NCBI GenBank assembly: GCA_044347345.1
Contig: JBIKUX010000008.1
Location: 32,027 to 96,026, forward strand
Reading direction: 5' to 3'
DNA from: Bdellovibrionota bacterium
GTDB taxonomy: Bacteria; Bdellovibrionota_C; UBA2361; JBIKUX01
Length of the DNA stretch: 64,000 nucleotides
Position numbers and translations under genes: made by a program. Positions 15,431-53,680 of this stretch are shown one piece after another; the stretch's first letter is position 1; every line of letters starts with the position of its first letter. The notes under the pieces were generated by a model. It was not told the DNA's origin. It made no database searches and saw nothing but the letters and a program-made list of their open reading frames with translations.

Positions 15431-15622
15431 TGGGGTAGCTCGGCGTATCTCATTTGAATAGAGTTCACTAGAATGAAAACTTATTTTAGATAAAAGGGTA
15501 TAAATAAGACTCTAACCTATCTGGGAAAAACTTGACCGAAAAAACTTATAAAAAAGCCAAAAAAATAGGGCTCAAATGATCGGGTAAGTAATAGGCTCTC
15601 TGCAAAACTCAGAGCTTAAATC

Positions 15623-15652
15623 GAAAAACAGAAACTAGAAAAACAGAAACTA
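15623..15652. repeat. Perfect 15-bp tandem duplication GAAAAACAGAAACTA x2
   Basis: Read directly from the sequence. Confidence 0.9.
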
Positions 15653-16180: not shown

Positions 16181-16675
16181 ATGCCACAGATGGGAGATGA
16201 TAAGTCGCATATTACACAAAACTCAAATTCAGCAGAAGTATCGGAATGTATACTGAACGCTCAAAAAGCTACTGAAATCTTTTCACGTGCCTTTGAATCA
16301 CTTACCAAAGACCCGAGTAAAAATTACAAGAACCAAGAAAGTTCAATTCTTGCGCAAGCAAGAAGCAACGTTACAGCAAACTCTTCTCTTGGTGAACTTC
16401 TTGATATTTCTAAGGCTAGGCCTCCTCAAGATGATGGGGATGATATAAATGAAATGAAACTTAAACTTCTATATGATGTTTGGCTCGCTATTAGACAACA
16501 ACTTGTTAAAGAATCTTATGTCATCCAAAATGAAGATAGGAAAGAGCTCTATCATTTCATGTCGCCAAATTTTGGGCTGATAGTTCCTGTAGAATTGGCA
16601 GATAAATATCACCACCCTTACGATCTAACGCCTACAAATCTTCTCAAAATGCAGTTTTCCACTGAAACCGACTAA
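16181..16675 (+). CDS. Hypothetical protein
   Basis: 164-aa ORF preceded by a purine-rich RBS-like stretch; no recognisable family. Confidence 0.6.
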   Translation: MPQMGDDKSHITQNSNSAEVSECILNAQKATEIFSRAFESLTKDPSKNYKNQESSILAQARSNVTANSSLGELLDISKARPPQDDGDDINEMKLKLLYDVWLAIRQQLVKESYVIQNEDRKELYHFMSPNFGLIVPVELADKYHHPYDLTPTNLLKMQFSTETD

Positions 16676-16951
16676 TACCACCTACCACTTCTCTCACGAC
16701 AAGACCGTGCACCATCTATGTTACAGCGACGCACGGTCGCCTGCGGTTGTTCGTTACAGGTCGACAGCGCACTTATGGCACAAAGTAAACTAGTTACAGT
16801 AGTGCAGGTGATCAGCCCCCCTTCTTCGCTACGATCAGAGGTGCATTAACAAAATCAGGCGGGAGCTTATCTTGATCTTGGTATCTCACTGCTTTGCTAA
16901 TAACAAACCATGCTCGTATTGAGCTCTTTATCGTTGCTTAAAATGGAGGCG

Positions 16952-18145
16952 TCAAATCGGCATATCGTGCGACGCACTCTCAGAGGTAGTCCGCCGCCGC
17001 TTATCGTAGATCTGGGTAGTGGTGATTCGTTTATGCCCCAGAAGCTCTTGGACCTTGGTAATATCAACCCCTGCATCAAGGAGAAGCGTTGCGGTGGTAG
17101 CCCTGAGCGAATGGGGCGAGTAGATGCACCGCTCAACCTCGATAGGCTTTCCATCTTCCCCCAACACCAGATTCCCAGCCTCATCTTTTACCTGCTCTTT
17201 GACCACAGCCCCTGGCAACTGCTTTAGGTAGCAAACGATCTTCCGCCATAGAGTCGAGGTATCTGCCCGCGCTAGAGCTAGCCTACTAGCATCCCTTGGA
17301 GCAGCTTGCGCCCGAAAAAGTGGGCCACTAGTAAGCTCAGCCTTGGCAATATGCTGGCGAATCGATTCAGCCGCAGCAAAGTGAATACCGATACGGCGCT
17401 GGGTACCCCCTTTTTCGCGAATTTTAAGCGTTGCATCGTGCTCATCATTGTAGAAGTCAGCGACATCAAGGAGCCGTAGGGTGTTAATCCGAATGCCTGT
17501 GTAGAGCAAAGTTTTGAGCATTGCTCGATCCTGGTAGTCCAGCACCCCTTCACCTGTTACAAGCCCCATAAGCTGCCTTGCTCGGGTGGCATTAAGGCTT
17601 AAGGTTTCTTGAACTGGAGAGCTTGCCAGCCGTCTAATAAACTGCACATGGGCTGGATTAGGCACCGTGATAGGTAGCCGCGCTTCAGCTGCACAGCCAG
17701 CCACAAACTGGTAGAAGGACGAAACGGCTGCCAATCTATGGTTAATGGTCTTAGGGGCTTTGTCTTGCTCAAGCATTATCTCGCGCCAGTAGGCTACATC
17801 ATGAATGGTGCCAGTAAGAAACCGATATGCTTCCTCTGGCCATACCCACCCCATGAACTCGATAAAGGCCATAATCCCACGGCGATACGATCTTTGGGTA
17901 TGGATGCTCTCTGACCTCTTTACCCACCGCTCAAAAATCTCGCCAATAGACTCATAAAACGACTGCACCCGGTTTTGTTGCGCTCGCTCAGACTCAAACC
18001 CCGCCAAAATTGGCGGCATGGCTACCCGTTGGTCATCGTCAGGCAGCAGCACCGTTGTTTTTACTGTTACCTCACTTACATCCCCCATAGGCTCCCTTAA
18101 CTTTATCTCCCCACACCTTTTGTGCAAGATAAGCTCTTTTATCAT
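16952..18145 (-). CDS. Tyrosine recombinase/integrase
   Basis: Catalytic set TGIR, HSLR, LGH, TTQIY; N-terminal SAM-like core-binding region (TQRSYRRGI, KTINHRLAAVSSFY). Confidence 0.95.
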   Translation of the reverse strand: MIKELILHKRCGEIKLREPMGDVSEVTVKTTVLLPDDDQRVAMPPILAGFESERAQQNRVQSFYESIGEIFERWVKRSESIHTQRSYRRGIMAFIEFMGWVWPEEAYRFLTGTIHDVAYWREIMLEQDKAPKTINHRLAAVSSFYQFVAGCAAEARLPITVPNPAHVQFIRRLASSPVQETLSLNATRARQLMGLVTGEGVLDYQDRAMLKTLLYTGIRINTLRLLDVADFYNDEHDATLKIREKGGTQRRIGIHFAAAESIRQHIAKAELTSGPLFRAQAAPRDASRLALARADTSTLWRKIVCYLKQLPGAVVKEQVKDEAGNLVLGEDGKPIEVERCIYSPHSLRATTATLLLDAGVDITKVQELLGHKRITTTQIYDKRRRTTSESASHDMPI

Positions 18146-18175
18146 GCATTAAGACGAAGATCTATTGACTATTTA

Positions 18176-18216
18176 TTACCCAGTAATTACGCTGTGTAAA
18201 TGTAATTACTATGTAA
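18176..18216. other. Inverted-repeat site between the divergent recombinase and coiled-coil genes
   Basis: TTACCCAGTAATTAC-N11-GTAATTACTATGTAA; the arms are 13/15 complementary. Confidence 0.75.
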
Positions 18217-18220
18217 CTTT

Positions 18221-19219
18221 ATGCCTATGAATGCTCCTTCCCTCCGAGAATCGCCCCAATCTCTAGAATATCAAGCCGCCTACGCCTGCTTCCAAGCCGC
18301 TGTCACCCTCAAGCGCGATGGCAGGCTAGTAAATGGTCCCCGCATCAGAGCGCTAGTGGGTCGAGGCTCTCACTCCACCACTAAAAAGTACGCCGATATC
18401 TGGAAAGCTCTTGAAGCTGGAGGAAGCCCGGATCTCTCCCCCGATGTCGAAGCCGCCTACGAAGCCGTCAAAGCCGGTAGCGAAGATCCAGCAGCCTTTA
18501 CTCCCCCACCCCCAGAGGAGCTAAAAGACCTGCTTAACCAGCTCTGGGAGATGACCCAAGAGTGGATAGCCACTGGGTGCCGTAAGACCGAAGAGATGTG
18601 CGGTGACGAGTTGGCAGAGATGGAAGACAAGGTCACAGTAGCCAACGCCGCTCGCGACAAGGCAAAAGCAGAACTTGCTAAACACGAGTCAGAGCGCGTC
18701 AAACTAGCAACCCAGAACAGTGAGCTAAAGCAGCTTACCTCCAAGCTAACCGGGCAGATGGAAGCCTTAGAAGCTAAGCTCAACGACCTAACCGATAAGA
18801 ACGCCACACTTGAGCAAACCATCAATGAGCAATCCAACCAGATTGTCCGCTTAACAATGGAGGCACAAATCACCCAAGAGCGCCTCACCGAGAGCAAGCG
18901 ACGGGAGGGAGAGGCACACGAGAGGGTTAAGACTACGCAGGAGCAACTTGAGAACCTGCGGGAAGCAAAGGAGCAGATTCAGGAGCGAGTCGCCCGGATG
19001 GAGGAAACAGAGAAGTCGCTCACCTCCCAGCTTGAGCGGGAGCGCACGCGGGTAGAGGCCTTGGATGGCAAGGTTTATGAGCAGGCCAGAGTTATTGCAG
19101 CCCTTACCGGGGAGGCGAAAGCTGCAGAGGAGCGGGCTAAAGCTTCCGAGGAGACGGTATCTTTACTTAGAAAAGAACTGCAACATAATGGAAAGACAAG
19201 CTTACCCTACATTAAATGA
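18221..19219 (+). CDS. KfrA_N/TnpT-like DNA-binding coiled-coil protein
   Basis: N-terminal AAVTLKRDGRLVNGPRIRALVGRGSHSTTKKYADIWK matches the KfrA-N pattern and is followed by about 200 aa of heptad repeats. Confidence 0.8.
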   Translation: MPMNAPSLRESPQSLEYQAAYACFQAAVTLKRDGRLVNGPRIRALVGRGSHSTTKKYADIWKALEAGGSPDLSPDVEAAYEAVKAGSEDPAAFTPPPPEELKDLLNQLWEMTQEWIATGCRKTEEMCGDELAEMEDKVTVANAARDKAKAELAKHESERVKLATQNSELKQLTSKLTGQMEALEAKLNDLTDKNATLEQTINEQSNQIVRLTMEAQITQERLTESKRREGEAHERVKTTQEQLENLREAKEQIQERVARMEETEKSLTSQLERERTRVEALDGKVYEQARVIAALTGEAKAAEERAKASEETVSLLRKELQHNGKTSLPYIK

Positions 19220-19228
19220 TTCATTGAT

Positions 19229-19400
19229 CTAAAATCGATATACCTCAAAGAATTGCTCACCGAGGCGGTAGATTGAACCGGAATGAGTCCCAACTGTAGT
19301 AACTCCAGCATTTCAAGTAGCTTTTCGCTATCGACAAGCTCGATCAGTGATACTCCAGCCCGTATACGACTTCTTTTCTTGCGTCGGTGGTTAATCCGTA
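19229..19400 (-). pseudogene. Frameshifted 3' remnant of an Mrr-family (type IV) restriction endonuclease
   Basis: Manual translation across two frameshifts gives TTDARKE / IRAGVSLIELVDSEKLLEMLELLQLGLIPVQ / YRLGEQFFEVYRF*. This matches the Mrr C-terminal pattern T.DA..EA.RDG..PIELVDGEKL..M...L.LGL.P...Y..D..FF. Confidence 0.7.
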
Positions 19401-19582
19401 TTTAACTACACTAAGCTGTCTAAAAAGACTTGCGAGTACATAGACACTAACTCGTTTTTAACTTAAACGAGCACAAAAAAATTTTTTTACTACTATATAT
19501 ACATTTTTTTTGTATCTTTTGTTGATTACCTAAACTGCTGCTGGTAGTTTTTTAAAAAAATGTTTTGTAATTTAGCTTAAAC

Positions 19583-20119: not shown

Positions 20120-20617
20120 TTAATTAAACTCAATATCTTCTGCTTTAATGTACTGCTGCCCTCTAGGGTCATTTTCGCCTCGTCCACACGGGTAACGGCG
20201 CCGAATCGGGTTTTTGTCTCTCCCGCCGTCAAGATGCCAAATTGTTGTACTTGGAGGAGTTTCTAAAATGGCAAATTGAATAAATGGCCCAAATTCTCCT
20301 TTTCCATCTCTGGCACAAAGCTCTATTATATTATAACTCCGAGGGTTTATTTTCCTTCTGGGATTATACTGGTCTTCTGTAAAAATTCTAACCTGACCTG
20401 AGTTAGCATTATCGTACCAAATATATATGTTATTGTGTGCAGTTTCTGGCTGCCGGTTAGAAAGCCCATAAAGACTAAAATTTTGATAAGTTATGACTGT
20501 ATCACCCACCCTTAGGTAGGCCGCTGTAAAACAATCTGGCAGTCTTTGTATCGGTGACTGTTGGTTACCTTTTGGTTTTTCTAATGGAAGGTCATGAGCA
20601 GATAGATGGAGATGCAT
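20120..20617 (-). CDS. Hypothetical protein
   Basis: 165-aa ORF with ATG start; no recognisable motif. Confidence 0.5.
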   Translation of the reverse strand: MHLHLSAHDLPLEKPKGNQQSPIQRLPDCFTAAYLRVGDTVITYQNFSLYGLSNRQPETAHNNIYIWYDNANSGQVRIFTEDQYNPRRKINPRSYNIIELCARDGKGEFGPFIQFAILETPPSTTIWHLDGGRDKNPIRRRYPCGRGENDPRGQQYIKAEDIEFN

Positions 20618-29156: not shown

Positions 29157-29990
29157 ATGAATACTCTGAGTCGGTCATCTTTCTTCGCTCGTATCAAACT
29201 AGCTCTTTGTTTTGTTGTTATCTGGGCGTTTGTTTTAGTCAGTGTGGGCTTACCGGAAATAGCTAGCGCCAGAACTCTCGAATACGATCAAAGCGAAGTA
29301 GCTGTATACGTAAATCCTGGAGAACCTACCCAAATTAGGTTCCCCGGCACCATATCTGGAGGATTTAAAAAGAAAAAATCTTCTATCGCTTTAGACCGAA
29401 AACAATCAGATTTAATCGTTTTTGCCAACGAGGCAATAGCTTCTGAAGGAGAAGCCATTATAGTAAGACTAAATGATGGTCGATCGTACTCTTTACGCAT
29501 TCAACGGGCTGGAGAAAATACTCCACCGCGTGACGATGTAGTACAAATCGATGATCTTAGGTCACCTGTAACACCTCTAGGAGAGGAGGAAGAAGAACCT
29601 CCTTTTAAAGAGCGAGACTTTCAATATGCTCCTCCAACACAAATTAGTGGCCTAATGCGTGAACTAGTCCTTCACGCTGAATTTGCTAAATCTAATATTC
29701 CGGGCTACCGAGTCAGTGAAAGATACAAGGGTGAAACAATTTTGAATGATGGAACATTGCTCGCTACTATTGAAAAAATATTTATAGGCCGAGCACTTTG
29801 GGGGTATGTACTTACAGTTGAAAATCAACTCGATGTCGCTCAAAAGCTTAATCCAGCCACATTTAGAATAGATGGAACTCGGGCAATATCTGCAAATTAT
29901 TGGGAACTCTCTCCACGACCACTTACTGTAGAACAACAAATAGCAGGTCGGCACAAATCTAAAGTGTACATTGTAACAAGAGCAAAGTGA
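29157..29990 (+). CDS. traK: TraK-like (VirB9-like) core-complex protein
   Basis: Signal peptide; VNPGEPTQIRFP; ISGLMREL...IPGY; WGYVLTVENQ....LNPATF...RAIS. Confidence 0.8.
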   Translation: MNTLSRSSFFARIKLALCFVVIWAFVLVSVGLPEIASARTLEYDQSEVAVYVNPGEPTQIRFPGTISGGFKKKKSSIALDRKQSDLIVFANEAIASEGEAIIVRLNDGRSYSLRIQRAGENTPPRDDVVQIDDLRSPVTPLGEEEEEPPFKERDFQYAPPTQISGLMRELVLHAEFAKSNIPGYRVSERYKGETILNDGTLLATIEKIFIGRALWGYVLTVENQLDVAQKLNPATFRIDGTRAISANYWELSPRPLTVEQQIAGRHKSKVYIVTRAK

Positions 29991-30015
29991 GTAAGGTAGT
30001 AGCAGTAGTAACAAC

Positions 30016-39328: not shown

Positions 39329-41539
39329 TCATCCACCCTCAAATCGTTGCGCACCTGAGGTAATTCGTCCAAGCATCAGATAGACAGCACGATTACCATC
39401 CTCTGCCATACCATATCCTATATAAAGCGGCAAAATGGGAGTATTGGCTCCCAAGAACACTGAGCTAGCAACTACAGACCCCTCATCTACTAAATTAGGA
39501 ATATCAGATTGCAAATTTGCTAACTCAAGAGATATTCCGCCAAATAGTTTATATCCTAACAGAGCGCTTGCACTATCTAATTCTTGTAACATTACAAATT
39601 TATGAACCTTGTAACTTGAAGCAACAAGAGAATTTTGTACAAAGCCCGAAAGATCAAGAAATCCACCTAATGTAAAGCTTCTTCCAGTCGGCCTAACGCC
39701 CTCTGTAAAACTAAATTCACCTCGATAAATAAAAGATAGAGAGCCCAAGTTTATTGGTTTAACTATTTCTCCACTTAATTCCGTAAAATCTCTGCTAGCT
39801 CCAACTACTTCAGCGGAACGAGATACAGAGAATCTACTAAGCAAACCATTCTGGGGAAAATCTAGGTCATCAAGAGTATCAAAAATAGCTCTAGTATAAA
39901 TATCACCTATCTTAAAAGAGGTTTCAGCTAGGCTAGGGTCCCCTACTCTTCTTTGAACGTCGCCATTACCCAAACGATATCCGACCAAAGCTTCCCATGA
40001 TTCATAAAAACCGTAGCCTAGACTCACTCCTCCCTGAGCTCTTGTTCTCTCATATTCAGCTATTAAATCTTGACCATTACGAATATATAAATTTCTCTGA
40101 TCAAGCAGACCTTGCGCCGCATAAAAAAAGTTACTGCCAAAATTGATAGGGTCTTCATACTCTATACTCAGCGAGTTTACCCGACCAAGACGAACGCCAA
40201 CATCAGCATAACCGCTGTGCAAACCTACGTCATTTATCCGCAAACCAGCACCTAAATTGTAAAAATTATCGCTCTTAAAATCGCCCTCAAGAGCTAAACC
40301 AAATCTAAGATACTGCTCATACCAATCTTTTTCTTTAGTAAGAAATTGAATTCCAGTAAGGTCACCTTGCTTTAAAACTTCACTCGAAACCTGAGAAAAA
40401 GCGCCAAGAGAATAGATCTTACCGACTGAGGAATCTATGGCAGGGTCGTTAATACTATCCCCAGCCTTAACTTCTATTCGTTCATGAATAACACTATCAG
40501 GCACAGATGAATCATTCTTTATCTTAACGAAATCAATTTTATCGTAAGCTGAATTAACCTTAGTTCTTTTTGCTTCCCAAACGCTGTACTCTTGCTCTGA
40601 AATAGAGAGTTTTTTTAACTCAGACATTTTAGCTCTTGCTGCATCCTCTCCCCGCTTAATAAGCTCTCTGGCTTTATTAAAATCAGTTGCCGAAAAACCT
40701 TTAAGGTCTGGTTCGATTAAAATATCTCCCACTTTAAGCTTTTGGCGTTGATATGCAGAATTTTGCGATAATAAAAGAGATAACATCTGACCAGATATTG
40801 CTAGTGGGTTATTTAATGCTTCTCTCTTTGCCAAATCAGCATAAAGCTCAACAGCAATTATCCTTTTTGCTCCCATCTCTTGCACAACACTTATGGGAAG
40901 ATTGTTAGCTATACCACCGTCAACCAATAACTTTCCGTTCATTTCAACCGCAGAAAACACTCCTGGAACTGCCATACTCGCTCTTGTAGCAATTGATAAA
41001 TCGCCACGATCAATTACTTCGGGCAAACCAGTTTCAATATCTGCGGCTATCGCTCGGTATTTCAGTGCCAGATTATCAAAAGAGCCGCTCTCTGGGTAAC
41101 GATAGAACAACTTTTGCAGAACTAGTCTAATTTTTTGGCCTTGTAGAATACCTGTTGGAACAACAAGTTTTCCTTTAACTATTCCAAATTTTACATCACC
41201 TAAGATTTCTCGATTACGCCCAGTCTTATCTTTTAATGGAACATCACTACGAGAAGGCCCATCACTAAAAAGCCTCTCCCAGTCGGTATTAGAAATAATC
41301 TCCTCTAATTCAGTAATACTTGCTCCCGCGGCATAAGCTGCTCCAACAATAGACCCCATGCTCGTGCCAGCTACATAATCTATGGGAACAGATGCCTCGT
41401 TAAGAACTTTTAAAACTCCTACATGAGCAAAGCCTAAAGCCCCTCCGCCAGCTAAAGCTAAACCGTTTTCCCTTGCTTGAGAGTAAGCAACAAAAGGGCA
41501 AACCAGACTTACAAATACATAGATTAAAAGCTTCTTCAT
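39329..41539 (-). CDS. Patatin-like phospholipase with POTRA and outer-membrane barrel (PlpD/type Vd-like)
   Basis: Signal peptide; LAGGGALGFAHVG, GTSMGS and DGG motifs; POTRA-like IEVKAGD..IYSLGAF; alternating beta-strand C-terminus. Confidence 0.88.
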   Translation of the reverse strand: MKKLLIYVFVSLVCPFVAYSQARENGLALAGGGALGFAHVGVLKVLNEASVPIDYVAGTSMGSIVGAAYAAGASITELEEIISNTDWERLFSDGPSRSDVPLKDKTGRNREILGDVKFGIVKGKLVVPTGILQGQKIRLVLQKLFYRYPESGSFDNLALKYRAIAADIETGLPEVIDRGDLSIATRASMAVPGVFSAVEMNGKLLVDGGIANNLPISVVQEMGAKRIIAVELYADLAKREALNNPLAISGQMLSLLLSQNSAYQRQKLKVGDILIEPDLKGFSATDFNKARELIKRGEDAARAKMSELKKLSISEQEYSVWEAKRTKVNSAYDKIDFVKIKNDSSVPDSVIHERIEVKAGDSINDPAIDSSVGKIYSLGAFSQVSSEVLKQGDLTGIQFLTKEKDWYEQYLRFGLALEGDFKSDNFYNLGAGLRINDVGLHSGYADVGVRLGRVNSLSIEYEDPINFGSNFFYAAQGLLDQRNLYIRNGQDLIAEYERTRAQGGVSLGYGFYESWEALVGYRLGNGDVQRRVGDPSLAETSFKIGDIYTRAIFDTLDDLDFPQNGLLSRFSVSRSAEVVGASRDFTELSGEIVKPINLGSLSFIYRGEFSFTEGVRPTGRSFTLGGFLDLSGFVQNSLVASSYKVHKFVMLQELDSASALLGYKLFGGISLELANLQSDIPNLVDEGSVVASSVFLGANTPILPLYIGYGMAEDGNRAVYLMLGRITSGAQRFEGG

Positions 41540-45157: not shown

Positions 45158-47005
45158 ATGAAAATAAGTAGTTGTAATTTATCACAATCCTCTTTGGTAC
45201 GGTCTTTAGTTTTAATAACCTTATCCTTCGGAGCTACTCATGGGATGGCCGAGGATAAGACCCAATCACCAAGGCATTTAGTACTACACTCAGAACCACA
45301 AGAAACAAAAAGACTAAGTAGCACAAGAAGCTTTTCAGAAACAGTGAGGCTTTCAGCAGCTCTTAACGGTAGTGCTCAATTACGTTTTTTCTTAAAATCA
45401 ATCGATGAACTACCAACAGAAGATTCTCTCAATGACTCAAACAAACGGTACCAAGGCACTGTTTCAGTAAGAAGAAGAGGGCAACGAATCAAATCATTAG
45501 CCTCCGCCGTCTCTTTTGAAGAAAAAGGTGTAAAACAATTAATAATAACTTTTTCACTACCAATTCGTTCTTCTCTCTCCAAAACTAAACATAACGCGCA
45601 ACAAATATATTACCGAGCTACAATAAAAAAAGGTGATAAATCTGTTGAAGTAAACCGTGTGCCATATTTTGCAATACCAAAAAATGATGGCTGTACAGAA
45701 CTTCATGCCCCTCAAGATATCAAATCTAATACTAATCAAGAATCAGTTAGTTTAAACGAAAATTTAAAAAGCGCTCTTACGACAACTTTTAAAGTTGTTG
45801 AAGTATATACCGATGCAGATGCACAATTTGTCTCAAGAAAGTCTGGCGCTGATGGAAGCAAGATTGCCACAATGTCTTACGTAAACGCTGCTGATCAAAT
45901 ATACCGACGAGATTCCCAACTAATACTGAATCATAAAGTAGTTAACGCTACGGGTGAAGATTATCAGACAAATTCTTCTAATACTATTCTTCAATTGTTT
46001 AGTGGAAAATCTCTTTCACCTTCAAGTGATGCTTATCTTTTATTCTCAGGGAGAGACTTTGACGGCTATACTATCGGACTTGCTTGGATAGGTGGTGCTT
46101 GCAACACAAAAGGTTATGCAACTGGATTAGTACAGGAGTTAAATCCCGCTGTTACCCATATCATATTTGCTCATGAACTAGGGCATTTACTGTCTGCACA
46201 ACATGACAATGTATTTAGCACCAGACCCGAATGTCTATCAAATTTCATCATGGGTACCACACTGGGGCTAAATCCTCCCTCAACTTTTTCAACTTGCTCA
46301 CGTTCGTCATTTTCTTCTTTCGTAAATGCTCGACCTGCATGTTTCTCGAGTCAAGAAGCAGATGTACAACCAACTCCCACAACATTACCGACTATTTCAC
46401 CCTCTTCTACACCAACTATGACTCCAACAACTATTGTAATCACTCCTACACCAACTAGAACCCCTACTGTGGCTGCTACACCGACTAATACCCCAGTACC
46501 TACGGTCGTCACAACTCCCATAAGCACGCCAACTACTCCAATAACTCCATCCCCTACGATTGTAGTGACTCCATCTTTAACGCCAACATCAATTTTACCA
46601 CCGGTGGTAATCAGCGTAATACCTTCACCTTCTTTTACAGTAAAACCTCCTATTGCACCTACTGCTACATTATCACCTACTCCTAGACAGCTTAGTGGCA
46701 AAATAACAGTAACTAACAATATCTTTAAAACTATGATGGTTAAAACAGAGTTAAGCTCAAATCCCCCTCAAAATTGTAGAATAGCATTTTTTCGAAGCAC
46801 CAATTTAGAAGACTTATTTAATAGACAACCCACTCTTACCACAGCAATAACAAGAGCTACCTCGAGCTTTTTGATATCCCGTCCACCACGAACTAACCCA
46901 GGTCAGATTGTACATGTCGGAGCTACTATTTCATGTAAAAATGGGACTAACTTAAAACTTACTTCAAGCCTTCGTGCCGCTGATATAAAAAATTTTCGTA
47001 AATAA
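45158..47005 (+). CDS. Secreted reprolysin-like (M12B) zinc metalloprotease with Pro/Thr linker
   Basis: Signal peptide; GRDFDGYTIGLAWIG..C; HELGHLLSAQHD; Met-turn FIMG; about 130 aa of PT/TP repeats; C-terminal domain. Confidence 0.88.
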   Translation: MKISSCNLSQSSLVRSLVLITLSFGATHGMAEDKTQSPRHLVLHSEPQETKRLSSTRSFSETVRLSAALNGSAQLRFFLKSIDELPTEDSLNDSNKRYQGTVSVRRRGQRIKSLASAVSFEEKGVKQLIITFSLPIRSSLSKTKHNAQQIYYRATIKKGDKSVEVNRVPYFAIPKNDGCTELHAPQDIKSNTNQESVSLNENLKSALTTTFKVVEVYTDADAQFVSRKSGADGSKIATMSYVNAADQIYRRDSQLILNHKVVNATGEDYQTNSSNTILQLFSGKSLSPSSDAYLLFSGRDFDGYTIGLAWIGGACNTKGYATGLVQELNPAVTHIIFAHELGHLLSAQHDNVFSTRPECLSNFIMGTTLGLNPPSTFSTCSRSSFSSFVNARPACFSSQEADVQPTPTTLPTISPSSTPTMTPTTIVITPTPTRTPTVAATPTNTPVPTVVTTPISTPTTPITPSPTIVVTPSLTPTSILPPVVISVIPSPSFTVKPPIAPTATLSPTPRQLSGKITVTNNIFKTMMVKTELSSNPPQNCRIAFFRSTNLEDLFNRQPTLTTAITRATSSFLISRPPRTNPGQIVHVGATISCKNGTNLKLTSSLRAADIKNFRK

Positions 47006-52087: not shown

Positions 52088-53680
52088 CTAACGAGTAATT
52101 TTTACATTTACTGGACCCAATGACGCACTTGAACCAAAAGCACACCGCACTTGAGCTTTTACCTGTATTTGCGGTAGTGATTTAGGGATTTTTCGTGATA
52201 CTGGTATCCTAAAAATCTGCCTTTTATTTGAAATTAAACGATTAAAACTCACCGTTGTGCCAGAGTCAGTAAAGGTACGATAAAGAGTAACTTCACATAA
52301 ATTGCCAGGGATTGACGATAATTTTACCGTAACATTTATATTCCGTCTGTTTCTAGACATATTAGCATTTATCCCACCTGATAAATTTATAGAAGTAGGT
52401 ATAGTCGGTACATTCGTTGGGAAATCAGTACTAGGTGGAAGTGATGGTTTCGCCGTTGGTGTAGTATCCGTTGTAATTGTAGGAGTGGGGGTTGCAAGAT
52501 CAAGGGATGAAAAACATTCAGATTTAGACCTTACAAAATTTGCGATATCATTTTTTGAGCATGATGAAAATTGAGTTGGAGGTTTATCGCCTAAACTTGT
52601 TCCCATCACAAAATTTTTACTACACTCAGGCCGGTTCACAATCTGTTGATCATGCACAGCTCCCAAGAGATGTCCAACTTCGTGAGCAAAGACAATATGA
52701 GTGACAGCGGGATTAACTTCTTGGACAATACCTGCTGATAAACCACCCTGCGCGCAAGCACCGCTTAACCAGGCTAGGCCGATAGTCGCTCCATCAAAAT
52801 TTCTACCTGAAAAAAGAATATGAACATCACTTTGAATCTTAGGTATGTTCATACTAAACCTCTCGTGTATTAACTCTGGATTGTTACTCCCAAAATCATC
52901 CCCACTGGTTTCAGCATTCTTATGATCAAAAGAGAGAGAGAGATCTTTGCGATAGATACCATCAGCCGCATTAACGTATGCTAATGATGCAATACGGGCA
53001 TCATTGCTGCCTCCCTTCTTATTTACAAATTGACGGTCTGCTTCAGTAACAACTTCAATAACTCTTAATTGACTAGATGATACTTTGGGTAATTTAGAGG
53101 CTGTATGTTTAAGTACATAATTGTTGCTTCTGATACCGCAGCCATCTAATGGAACAGCAAAATAGGGAGCACGATTTACAATTATTTTTTTATCATCTCT
53201 ATTGAATAATGCCCGATAATACACCACTCGCTTATCACTATGACCGTCTTGTACTGCTTTTCTTACCGGTAATGAAAAATTTAATACTAAAATTGTCTTG
53301 CCATGGCTATACGATGAAACCGCCGTCGCCGGATTCCTGATTTGCTTTCCTCCTCTTCGGCTAAATACAAAACCTTGGTATTTTTTTTCAGTTGAGTTGA
53401 TCTGTTTATAGTTTACCTCAGATAAAATAAAACGAAGTTGAGTATTGCCGAAAACTTTAGCAAAAATTTTCAGTGTGTTTTTACTGAATTTTTCATTGGG
53501 TCTACTAGCTTTACTACTTAAAACAGTTGAATGAATACTCATATAACGCGGAGAGCGAACTAATTGCTCACCTAAAACAGGCGAAATAATTAAGAAAAAA
53601 ACAAGTACTATAAACGTTAGAGATGCTAGTAACTTATAATACACTCCAACTTTATAAAGACTCGCCCTTACCTGCCTCAT
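52088..53680 (-). CDS. Secreted reprolysin-like (M12B) metalloprotease, paralog of 45158-47005
   Basis: GRNFDGATIGLAWL..AC; HEVGHLLGAVHD; FVMG Met-turn; short PT linker. Confidence 0.88.
   Translation of the reverse strand: MRQVRASLYKVGVYYKLLASLTFIVLVFFLIISPVLGEQLVRSPRYMSIHSTVLSSKASRPNEKFSKNTLKIFAKVFGNTQLRFILSEVNYKQINSTEKKYQGFVFSRRGGKQIRNPATAVSSYSHGKTILVLNFSLPVRKAVQDGHSDKRVVYYRALFNRDDKKIIVNRAPYFAVPLDGCGIRSNNYVLKHTASKLPKVSSSQLRVIEVVTEADRQFVNKKGGSNDARIASLAYVNAADGIYRKDLSLSFDHKNAETSGDDFGSNNPELIHERFSMNIPKIQSDVHILFSGRNFDGATIGLAWLSGACAQGGLSAGIVQEVNPAVTHIVFAHEVGHLLGAVHDQQIVNRPECSKNFVMGTSLGDKPPTQFSSCSKNDIANFVRSKSECFSSLDLATPTPTITTDTTPTAKPSLPPSTDFPTNVPTIPTSINLSGGINANMSRNRRNINVTVKLSSIPGNLCEVTLYRTFTDSGTTVSFNRLISNKRQIFRIPVSRKIPKSLPQIQVKAQVRCAFGSSASLGPVNVKITR

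Follow-up and report, generated by a model that had tools for sequence, protein, structure and literature searches.

What brought a tyrosine recombinase gene and a divergently transcribed gene for a coiled-coil protein into the chromosome of a lake bacterium, in DNA whose composition differs so clearly from that of its surroundings? The question is posed by an island of ~2.8 kb in a stretch of 64,000 nucleotides (referred to here as the window) from contig JBIKUX010000008.1 of a Bdellovibrionota bacterium. A first-pass annotation of this DNA took the island for a stranded, stand-alone module of the TnpS/TnpT type, the cointegrate-resolution system of Tn4651-type transposons. That proposal is partly supported, being right on the gene architecture and the stranded state and wrong on the family and the parent element. 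The island probably derives from the stability region of a plasmid or conjugative element, of which it would be a fragment acquired recently, and is made up of two linked parts, one for multimer resolution and the other encoding a KfrA-type protein. As the first-pass annotation stated, its DNA is GC-rich against the host (51.0% across 16676-19445 versus 39.9% for the remaining window in a composition profile), and it is foreign by this measure. The features of the island are the following.

16676 to 16951, no strand: left GC-rich flank; the step in GC content starts directly after the stop codon of the host open reading frame (ORF) 16181-16675.
16952 to 18088, minus strand: Xer-like tyrosine recombinase of 378 amino acids, with a start ATG at 18088 behind an AAGGGAG Shine-Dalgarno sequence.
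18123 to 18148, no strand: site B, a 10-6-10 dif-like palindrome (TGCAAGATAA-GCTCTT-TTATCATGCA) with arms of 10 nt on either side of a 6-nt spacer, located ~35 bp upstream of where the recombinase starts.
18165 to 18193, plus strand: putative promoter of the KfrA-type gene, with a -35 element TTGACT (18165-18170), 17 nt, and a weak -10 element TACGCT (18188-18193).
18176 to 18216, no strand: site A, an inverted repeat (TTACCCAGTAA-TTAC..GTAA-TTACTATGTAA) with TTAC-N3-GTAA units, beside the start codon of the KfrA-type gene.
18227 to 19219, plus strand: KfrA-type protein of 330 amino acids (the partner); an alternative ATG at 18221 would give 332 amino acids.
19220 to 19445, no strand: right flank of the island, 41-48% GC, which stops before a hairpin (19451-19471) and an A/T run, with host-like AT-rich DNA beyond.

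Both genes named by the first-pass annotation, a tyrosine recombinase and a divergent KfrA_N coiled-coil gene, hold up as intact ORFs with Pfam matches to the expected families. The longest recombinase ORF spans 16952-18145 on the minus strand (397 amino acids), and the start at M20 (18088) is backed by gene calls and 16 aligned homologs. The protein matches Phage_integrase (E 5.5e-20) and Phage_int_SAM_1 (E 6.9e-07). The top NCBIfam models are XerD, XerC and XerA at ~100 bits, and the nearest solved structures are those of XerD, XerA and a XerC-like protein. The scores are far under the equivalog cutoffs, so the recombinase is not XerC, XerD, XerS or XerA itself; from its profile matches it is Xer-like. 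Motifs of the R..HxxR..H..Y catalytic region are invariant in 17 homologs, and homologs number more than 2300 at E <= 1e-10, the best of which is 89% identical. The dN/dS ratio is 0.12 against the relative L013 (see below), and the dN values relative to a second relative, L012, are 0.166 for the window and 0.164 for L013 with no acceleration of rate versus this outgroup. The recombinase gene is under purifying selection.

The partner scores 30.3 bits with Pfam KfrA_N, over the cutoff of 26.1, followed by coiled-coil noise matches. Its closest relatives score 34.0 and 27.4 bits, and more distant ones fall under the cutoff. An AlphaFold model of the partner (mean pLDDT 80.9) has helices at residues 13-30, 37-44, 49-63 and 72-82 in a small head, behind which one continuous helix at 96-321 forms a coiled-coil tail of ~225 residues. 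The protein is thus predicted to have the KfrA build, an N-terminal helical DNA-binding head joined to a long coiled coil. Characterized KfrA-type proteins are autoregulators with this head-and-tail build, a globular head followed by a coiled-coil tail (PMC7821693, PMC7783346). The partner family is rare, with five matches by word index and ~12 real clusters among 1.84 billion representatives searched with a profile of four partner sequences. The gene is likewise under purifying selection, with a dN/dS of 0.17 against L013 and dN values relative to L012 of 0.377 for the window and 0.373 for L013. Measured from L012, the branch to the window is as long as that to L013, and there is no sign of decay.

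The two genes were described as lying 75 bp apart, a distance that holds for the longest ORFs only; with the supported starts at 18088 and 18227 the gap is 138 bp. The inverted repeat reported between them is real (site A, 18176-18216), and the gap holds a second one (site B, 18123-18148) that escaped the first reading because it is hidden inside the over-long recombinase ORF. Shuffling the 138 bp gives an inverted repeat like site A in 1% of cases and both palindromes together in 0.5%. The inner geometry of site B, ATAA-N6-TTAT, is that of dif-type sites, and site B occurs as a single copy 25-45 bp upstream of the recombinase gene in L012, L013/L015, L108, L109, L114, L115 and L117; in L110 the site is degenerate (TGTCGATAAATTCTCTTATTTACA) and does not fit the exact pattern. 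Given this conservation and geometry, site B is assigned as the candidate core recombination site of the recombinase, and it probably serves as the recombinase operator too. Only one copy of site B is present in this chromosome.

Site A has arms of 15 nt (18176-18190 and 18202-18216) that are 87% complementary, and lies 4-10 nt from the partner start codon in the window and L013. An equivalent inverted repeat with lineage-specific sequence and a spacer of 9-13 nt is found at the same position in L013, L012, L114, L115 and L110, and repeated motifs take the place of the inverted repeat in L108 and L109. Site A is therefore different in sequence from lineage to lineage, site B is nearly constant, and this mirrors the fast evolution of the partner (23-88% identity) and the slow evolution of the recombinase. 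The two sites are ~27 bp apart. Site A is a candidate operator or accessory site for the KfrA_N protein. The putative partner promoter overlaps it, and the block AGTCAATAG (reverse complement CTATTGACT) is kept in the window, L012, L114 and L115, with TTGCCT at this place in L013. A consensus scan for promoters and terminators of the region gave nothing better than shuffles; it missed 18165-18193 because the -10 element matches at only three of six positions.

Whether this arrangement is more than an accident of the window can be judged from its relatives. The first-pass annotation expected the pair to co-occur elsewhere, and the same divergent pair recurs in eight other lineages with a gap of 130-176 bp and both palindromic sites. 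Across these lineages the recombinases are 89-58% and the partners 88-23% identical to those of the window, as listed here.

L013-16: recombinase 89%, partner 74%.
L115: recombinase 80%, partner 62%.
L114: recombinase 77%, partner truncated by the contig end.
L012, a cyanobacterial metagenome-assembled genome (MAG): recombinase 77%, partner 52%.
L108: recombinase 68%, partner 32%.
L109: recombinase 67%, partner 31%.
L110, Lusitaniella coriacea: recombinase 58%, partner 23%.
P0122 contig: partner 88%, no figure for the recombinase.

At every one of the measured identities (88, 74, 52, 32, 31 and 23%) the partner homolog is divergent from a recombinase. One and the same block comes after the pair in L012 and L013-16, with unknown genes, a TrwB/TraG coupling protein (T4CP) and a TrwC relaxase, and from this gene content the carriers are taken to be MOBF conjugative or mobilisable elements. 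In L117, whose recombinase is 64% identical to that of the window, parA-parB occupy the place of the partner and site B is kept. The best match in PLSDB is on pK2D_1, a mobilisable MOBF plasmid of a planctomycete (50.7% identity). DNA homology between the window and L013 (82% identity) runs from the recombinase stop codon at 16952 to 19137, inside the 3' end of the partner gene, and the flanking contexts of the pair differ in every lineage. In every relative the pair is GC-richer than the rest of its carrier element, and conservation is higher for the pair (77% for the recombinase, 52% for the partner) than for the transfer backbone (41% for T4CP, 30% for TrwC). A phage origin was considered and rejected on the ground that 2.9 million viral contigs held no relatives of either the recombinase or the partner.

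Since the first-pass annotation placed the island with Tn4651, tnpT (332 amino acids) and tnpS (323 amino acids) of that transposon were located on pWW0 for comparison. The likeness in architecture is close. TnpS is a tyrosine recombinase divergent from TnpT, and TnpT (L027, pWW0 29463-30461) was found to have a Pfam KfrA_N domain (93 bits) and a coiled coil, so that each locus pairs a tyrosine recombinase with a divergent KfrA_N/coiled-coil protein of ~330 amino acids. Reviews state that TnpT has no homologs among known proteins (PMC7157771, PMC4337579), a statement which the presence of KfrA_N corrects. Two palindromes lie between tnpS and tnpT, of which one is an accessory site for TnpT and the other the core site for TnpS (PMC4619425, PMC4337579). 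In both systems an intergenic region of 140-190 bp holds the two promoters along with a core and an accessory palindrome (PMC4619425, PMC4337579), which are candidates in the case of the window, and site A has a 10-nt string, TTACATAGTA, in common with the tnpT-proximal palindrome of Tn4651.

The likeness does not extend to the proteins. BLASTP of the window recombinase against pWW0 TnpS gave E 0.04, and hhalign of the family profile against TnpS aligned the generic catalytic domain only (E 3.8e-7). With the XerD/XerC/XerA models the window recombinase scores ~100 bits and TnpS ~39 bits, which places the integrase subfamily as Xer-like rather than TnpS-like; TnpS belongs to the Cre-like family. 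The partner matched TnpT by hhalign only over a G-x-GS-x-TT-x-KY helix-turn-helix stretch (E 8.7e-4, probability 23%), BLASTP not being significant, and this motif is all that the two have in common. The first-pass annotation had seen no Tn3 transposase, terminal repeats or rep gene, and this stands: among the window ORFs scanned, none was a gene for a transposase, a relaxase or Rep, terminal inverted repeats were not found at the island, and a Tn3 transposase was lacking from the window and from the flanks of all nine relatives. The carriers are MOBF-type conjugative or plasmid-like elements and, in this case, a chromosome. The absence of Tn3 features, together with contexts of T4CP/TrwC or parAB, indicates that the parent was a plasmid or conjugative element and not a Tn4651-type transposon. 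The analogy with TnpS/TnpT stands for the layout of divergent genes and two palindromes, and membership fails.

The way in which the module would work on a native circular replicon can be proposed. In a dimer or cointegrate, site B would be present as two direct repeats, and recombination between them by the recombinase would resolve multimers. As site B is located between any promoter and the recombinase start, binding of the recombinase there should repress its own gene. The partner would bind site A, which overlaps the -35 and -10 elements of the partner promoter, and binding should therefore repress the partner gene, as KfrA proteins do (PMC7821693, PMC7783346). The partner could then assist at the core site in an accessory or architectural role, like that of TnpT in Tn4651 or of PepA/ArgR at cer. 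Alternatively, it could be a segregation or maintenance protein, as KfrA proteins are. In the chromosome, a single site B leaves no intramolecular partner site, and the module would be idle; it is probably a tightly autorepressed hitchhiker.

All 19 population contigs fetched from lake metagenomes (L003-L011 and L017-L026) are 100% identical to the window wherever they overlap the island, which is carried, in the same place, by each contig that has the exact host UvrD-like protein; the island is intact and fixed in the population. No empty site was obtained, a metagenome scan with the flanking DUF445 protein having given only two short contigs. The next homologs are at most 49% identical and lack synteny, and it is the isolation of the host lineage that explains why no empty-site genome was found. 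Junctions indicative of excision, a circle or inversion were absent from the assembler contigs of eight runs, in which rare forms would be missed. Two lake metatranscriptomes gave no RNA contigs over 16887-19422 and covered both host flanks, in an analysis that was contig-based and of low depth; the missing contigs are weakly consistent with tight repression. Variant, near-identical copies of the recombinase occur in other contexts within the same lakes, as a loose end at 16952 shows, and the metagenome that yielded L013 also contains a relative of a host gene at 82% identity, indicating that donors are at hand.

Direct repeats flanking the island are not found beyond chance, the window yielded no tRNA genes, and an Rfam scan of the window gave no match. 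The two flanks (16676-16951 and 19220-19445) have no homology to the flanks of the relatives by blastn or tblastx, nor did a plasmid search with them return a match. The left flank contains three direct GTTACAG repeats at 16720, 16753 and 16793 (33 and 40 bp apart); the window has 13 copies of this string, and these three fall within 80 bp of one another. The left flank also contains, at 16863-16874, 12 nt that repeat part of site B (18125-18136) perfectly in inverted orientation, taking in one arm and 4 nt of the spacer. This half-site, 78 bp past the recombinase stop codon, appears by chance in 0.9% of shuffles; it is absent from the relatives and so is specific to the window. An invertible switch between site B and the half-site at 16863 was rejected, as all contigs have one orientation and the relatives lack the half-site. 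The first-pass annotation had offered a relic or a minimal mobile unit; lacking flanking repeats, excision or circle junctions and an empty site, and with its recombination site in mid-island, the island is better read as a relic, and this is the option favoured here.

Several points weigh against reading the island as a recently stranded fragment of a plasmid or conjugative element. Since neither GC-rich flank finds a match in the relatives, the fragment is not traceable to a particular parent. ORFs without decay are unexpected for a long-idle relic, and imply either recent acquisition or selection for some function. The link of the partner to recombination may be only positional. The last point gains force from the wider recombinase family, for which 80 loci with recombinases ~50% identical to that of the window were collected from reference genomes of Planctomycetota, Acidobacteriota, Binatia, Myxococcota, Verrucomicrobiota and others. 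No partner homolog turned up when every ORF of these 80 loci was searched with a profile, and clustering of neighbours found no conserved neighbour gene. Absent from ~80 distant members and replaced by ParAB in L117, the partner is not needed by the recombinase family as such.

Site B, for its part, is retained in the wider family. Exact GATAA-N6-TTATC occurs 64 times in the 1.25 Mb of the 80 distant loci versus 1.2 expected. In 46 of 72 loci it is found no more than 300 bp upstream of the recombinase gene (median 46 bp), and about ten further loci have it 365-1074 bp upstream. Its spacer is mostly AATCTG, in a fixed orientation. Many of these loci are in Mb-scale chromosomal contigs, some MAGs have two to four of them, and the family is also plasmid-borne. 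A second GATAA-N6-TTATC is found 2-9 kb downstream of the recombinase in L063, L064, L070, L074, L080 and L100, and such sites might delimit resolvable or invertible segments. In L036 and L056 the divergent neighbour starts with a motif that may be of the kind typical of Mu/Tn7-type transposase N-termini.

The alternative that survives best is that the two genes are independent neighbours, a plasmid multimer resolvase beside a KfrA-type segregation or regulatory protein without a role in recombination, the divergent promoter region being shared as a result of the clustering of stability genes. KfrA proteins autoregulate and interact with partition proteins (PMC7783346, PMC7821693), and in L117 parA-parB sit exactly where the partner would be. 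The swap of parAB for the partner in that lineage and the wider family of partner-less members argue for independence, but adjacency and constant spacing are kept down to 23% identity of the partner, with sites A and B held ~27 bp apart, and TnpT, the one tested KfrA_N protein beside a tyrosine recombinase, is a proven resolution helper (PMC7157771). The deep conservation of adjacency, the spacing of the sites and the precedent of TnpT argue for coupling of the partner to recombination. Independence of the two genes is held to be possible and rather unlikely.

A broader proposal is that the module belongs to a large, apparently undescribed class of Xer-like modules, each a recombinase with a gene-proximal dif-like palindrome, that was spread by horizontal gene transfer over Planctomycetota, Acidobacteriota, Cyanobacteria and others. 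A sub-clade would have recruited a KfrA-type accessory factor, by convergence with TnpS/TnpT or from deep homology with it, and the chromosomal copy would serve its host, for example as a plasmid docking site or for back-up dimer resolution. Taken as a whole, this proposal is improbable, though a little less so than the two that follow.

It is possible in principle that the island is a minimal integrative mobile element, in which the recombinase is an integrase and the 2.8-kb unit excises and reintegrates alone or is mobilised by related conjugative elements. Much about the island suits such an element: it is a discrete GC-rich unit with sharp boundaries of composition, neither of its genes is disrupted and both show purifying selection, the recombinase stop codon is the exact point at which homology between lineages breaks off, in contexts that differ each time, the pair is GC-richer than its own element and more conserved than the transfer backbone, and near-identical recombinase variants are found in other contexts in the same lakes. 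The sole full recombination site, however, is internal and intact instead of being split into attL and attR, direct repeats beyond chance and a tRNA target are lacking, the eight runs gave no excision, circle or inversion joints, and every host-flank contig has a 100% identical island in the same place. With these observations together, a mobile element of this kind is quite unlikely.

Domestication by the host is hardly more credible. Here the module would be a gene-linked Xer/dif-type system for chromosome dimer resolution, as are XerS/difSL and XerH/difH, or a docking site for reversible integration of plasmids with site B. An Xer-like recombinase next to a dif-like palindrome is what marks single-recombinase Xer modules (PMC5357621), the module is intact without relaxed selection and is fixed and clonal over many lake metagenomes, elements related to it are present in the same metagenomes, and Coxiella retains in its chromosome a plasmid-derived xerL (PMC9765430). 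Against this, the cumulative GC skew keeps falling steadily to the left and to the right of the island, without a switch of sign or an inflection at 18 kb, so the locus is not the replication terminus. The composition is foreign and unameliorated, the wider family is plasmid-borne and multi-copy in single genomes, and RNA contigs were lacking over the island and present over its flanks.

The remaining alternative, that a Tn4651/Tn3-family transposon left a genuine TnpS/TnpT cointegrate-resolution module behind, has in its favour the matching gene architecture with two palindromes between divergent genes (PMC4619425), the length of 332 amino acids of both TnpT and the partner as its longest ORF, and the string common to site A and the tnpT-proximal palindrome, but is largely refuted and very improbable given a recombinase that is not TnpS-like, a partner that matches TnpT across the helix-turn-helix motif only, the lack of Tn3 transposase or terminal repeats in the window and nine relatives, and informative contexts of T4CP with TrwC, or parAB.

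As a probable fragment of a plasmid stability region, the module can be set beside other known systems. In the single-recombinase Xer systems XerS/difSL and XerH/difH the site adjoins the gene, which is a hallmark (PMC5357621), and the same is true of plasmid-borne xerL of Coxiella (PMC9765430). The module of the window resembles XerS/difSL, XerH/difH and Coxiella xerL/dif in having one Xer-like recombinase of ~360-380 amino acids and a gene-adjacent, near-palindromic dif-like site that form a transferable unit. It differs in its 6-bp spacer, its location away from the terminus, the extra KfrA-type neighbour of its sub-clade, and a wider family that is plasmid-borne and multi-copy, and extends across phyla at ~50% identity. 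With cer/psi (XerCD with PepA and ArgR/ArcA) and parCBA of RK2 it has in common a core site next to an accessory protein-binding sequence in a plasmid stability region with divergent operons (PMC5357621), the binding in the present case being predicted. Unlike these systems, the element encodes both the recombinase and the putative accessory protein, and its accessory region is short, a single palindrome ~27 bp from the core. Like KfrA of IncP-1 and IncU plasmids, the partner has a DNA-binding head, a long coiled-coil tail and a repeated or palindromic candidate operator in its own promoter (PMC7821693, PMC7783346). It differs from KfrA in its marginal Pfam score, in belonging to a very small family, and in being paired with a tyrosine recombinase and not with korA-incC-korB/kfrC.

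The remainder of the window is chromosomal, with asd, hemB, dapA, AddAB-like genes, a TonB receptor and other housekeeping genes. It includes, 10-16 kb from the island, a diverged block of F-type type IV secretion system (T4SS) genes with host-like GC content (29157-35023), for which no accompanying coupling protein or relaxase was seen in the window. The genes dapA, an AI-2E transporter and DUF445 lie between this block and the island. The block comprises the following genes.

29157 to 29990: TraK-like.
30016 to 31191: TraB/TrbI.
31145 to 31654: TraV.
32309 to 35023: TraC/VirB4.

Further along are two reprolysin-like (M12B) metalloprotease paralogues on opposite strands (45158-47005 and 52088-53680), near which are a patatin-Omp85 fusion (39329-41539) and a fusion of an alpha/beta-hydrolase with an AMP-binding enzyme (57249-59993); this gene set is unusual for a freshwater bacterium. 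To the left of the island, in AT-rich intergenic DNA at 15558-15640, a 15-nt tandem unit (GAAAAACAGAAACTA) varies in copy number in one run. To the right, some population contigs have a 21-nt insertion (TAGATCGGGGGGGGGGGGGGG) at ~20602, inside the ORF 20120-20617 on the minus strand, which alters the called length of a hypothetical protein to 129, 165 or 172 amino acids; this insertion may reflect a polymorphism in the length of a poly-G run, or it may have arisen in assembly.

The island itself probably matters little to the host genome. What it contributes is a second setting for a design, a tyrosine recombinase with a KfrA_N helper and two palindromes, that has so far been described only for Tn4651-type transposons and is extended here to an Xer-like recombinase on conjugative or plasmid-like elements. 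This suggests that site-specific recombination may repeatedly have a KfrA-type protein as its partner. The main added value lies in the link of KfrA_N to TnpT and in a family-wide prediction of the recombination site, GATAA-N6-TTATC upstream of the gene, for a family that counts over 2300 members at E <= 1e-10, in phyla that have been little studied.

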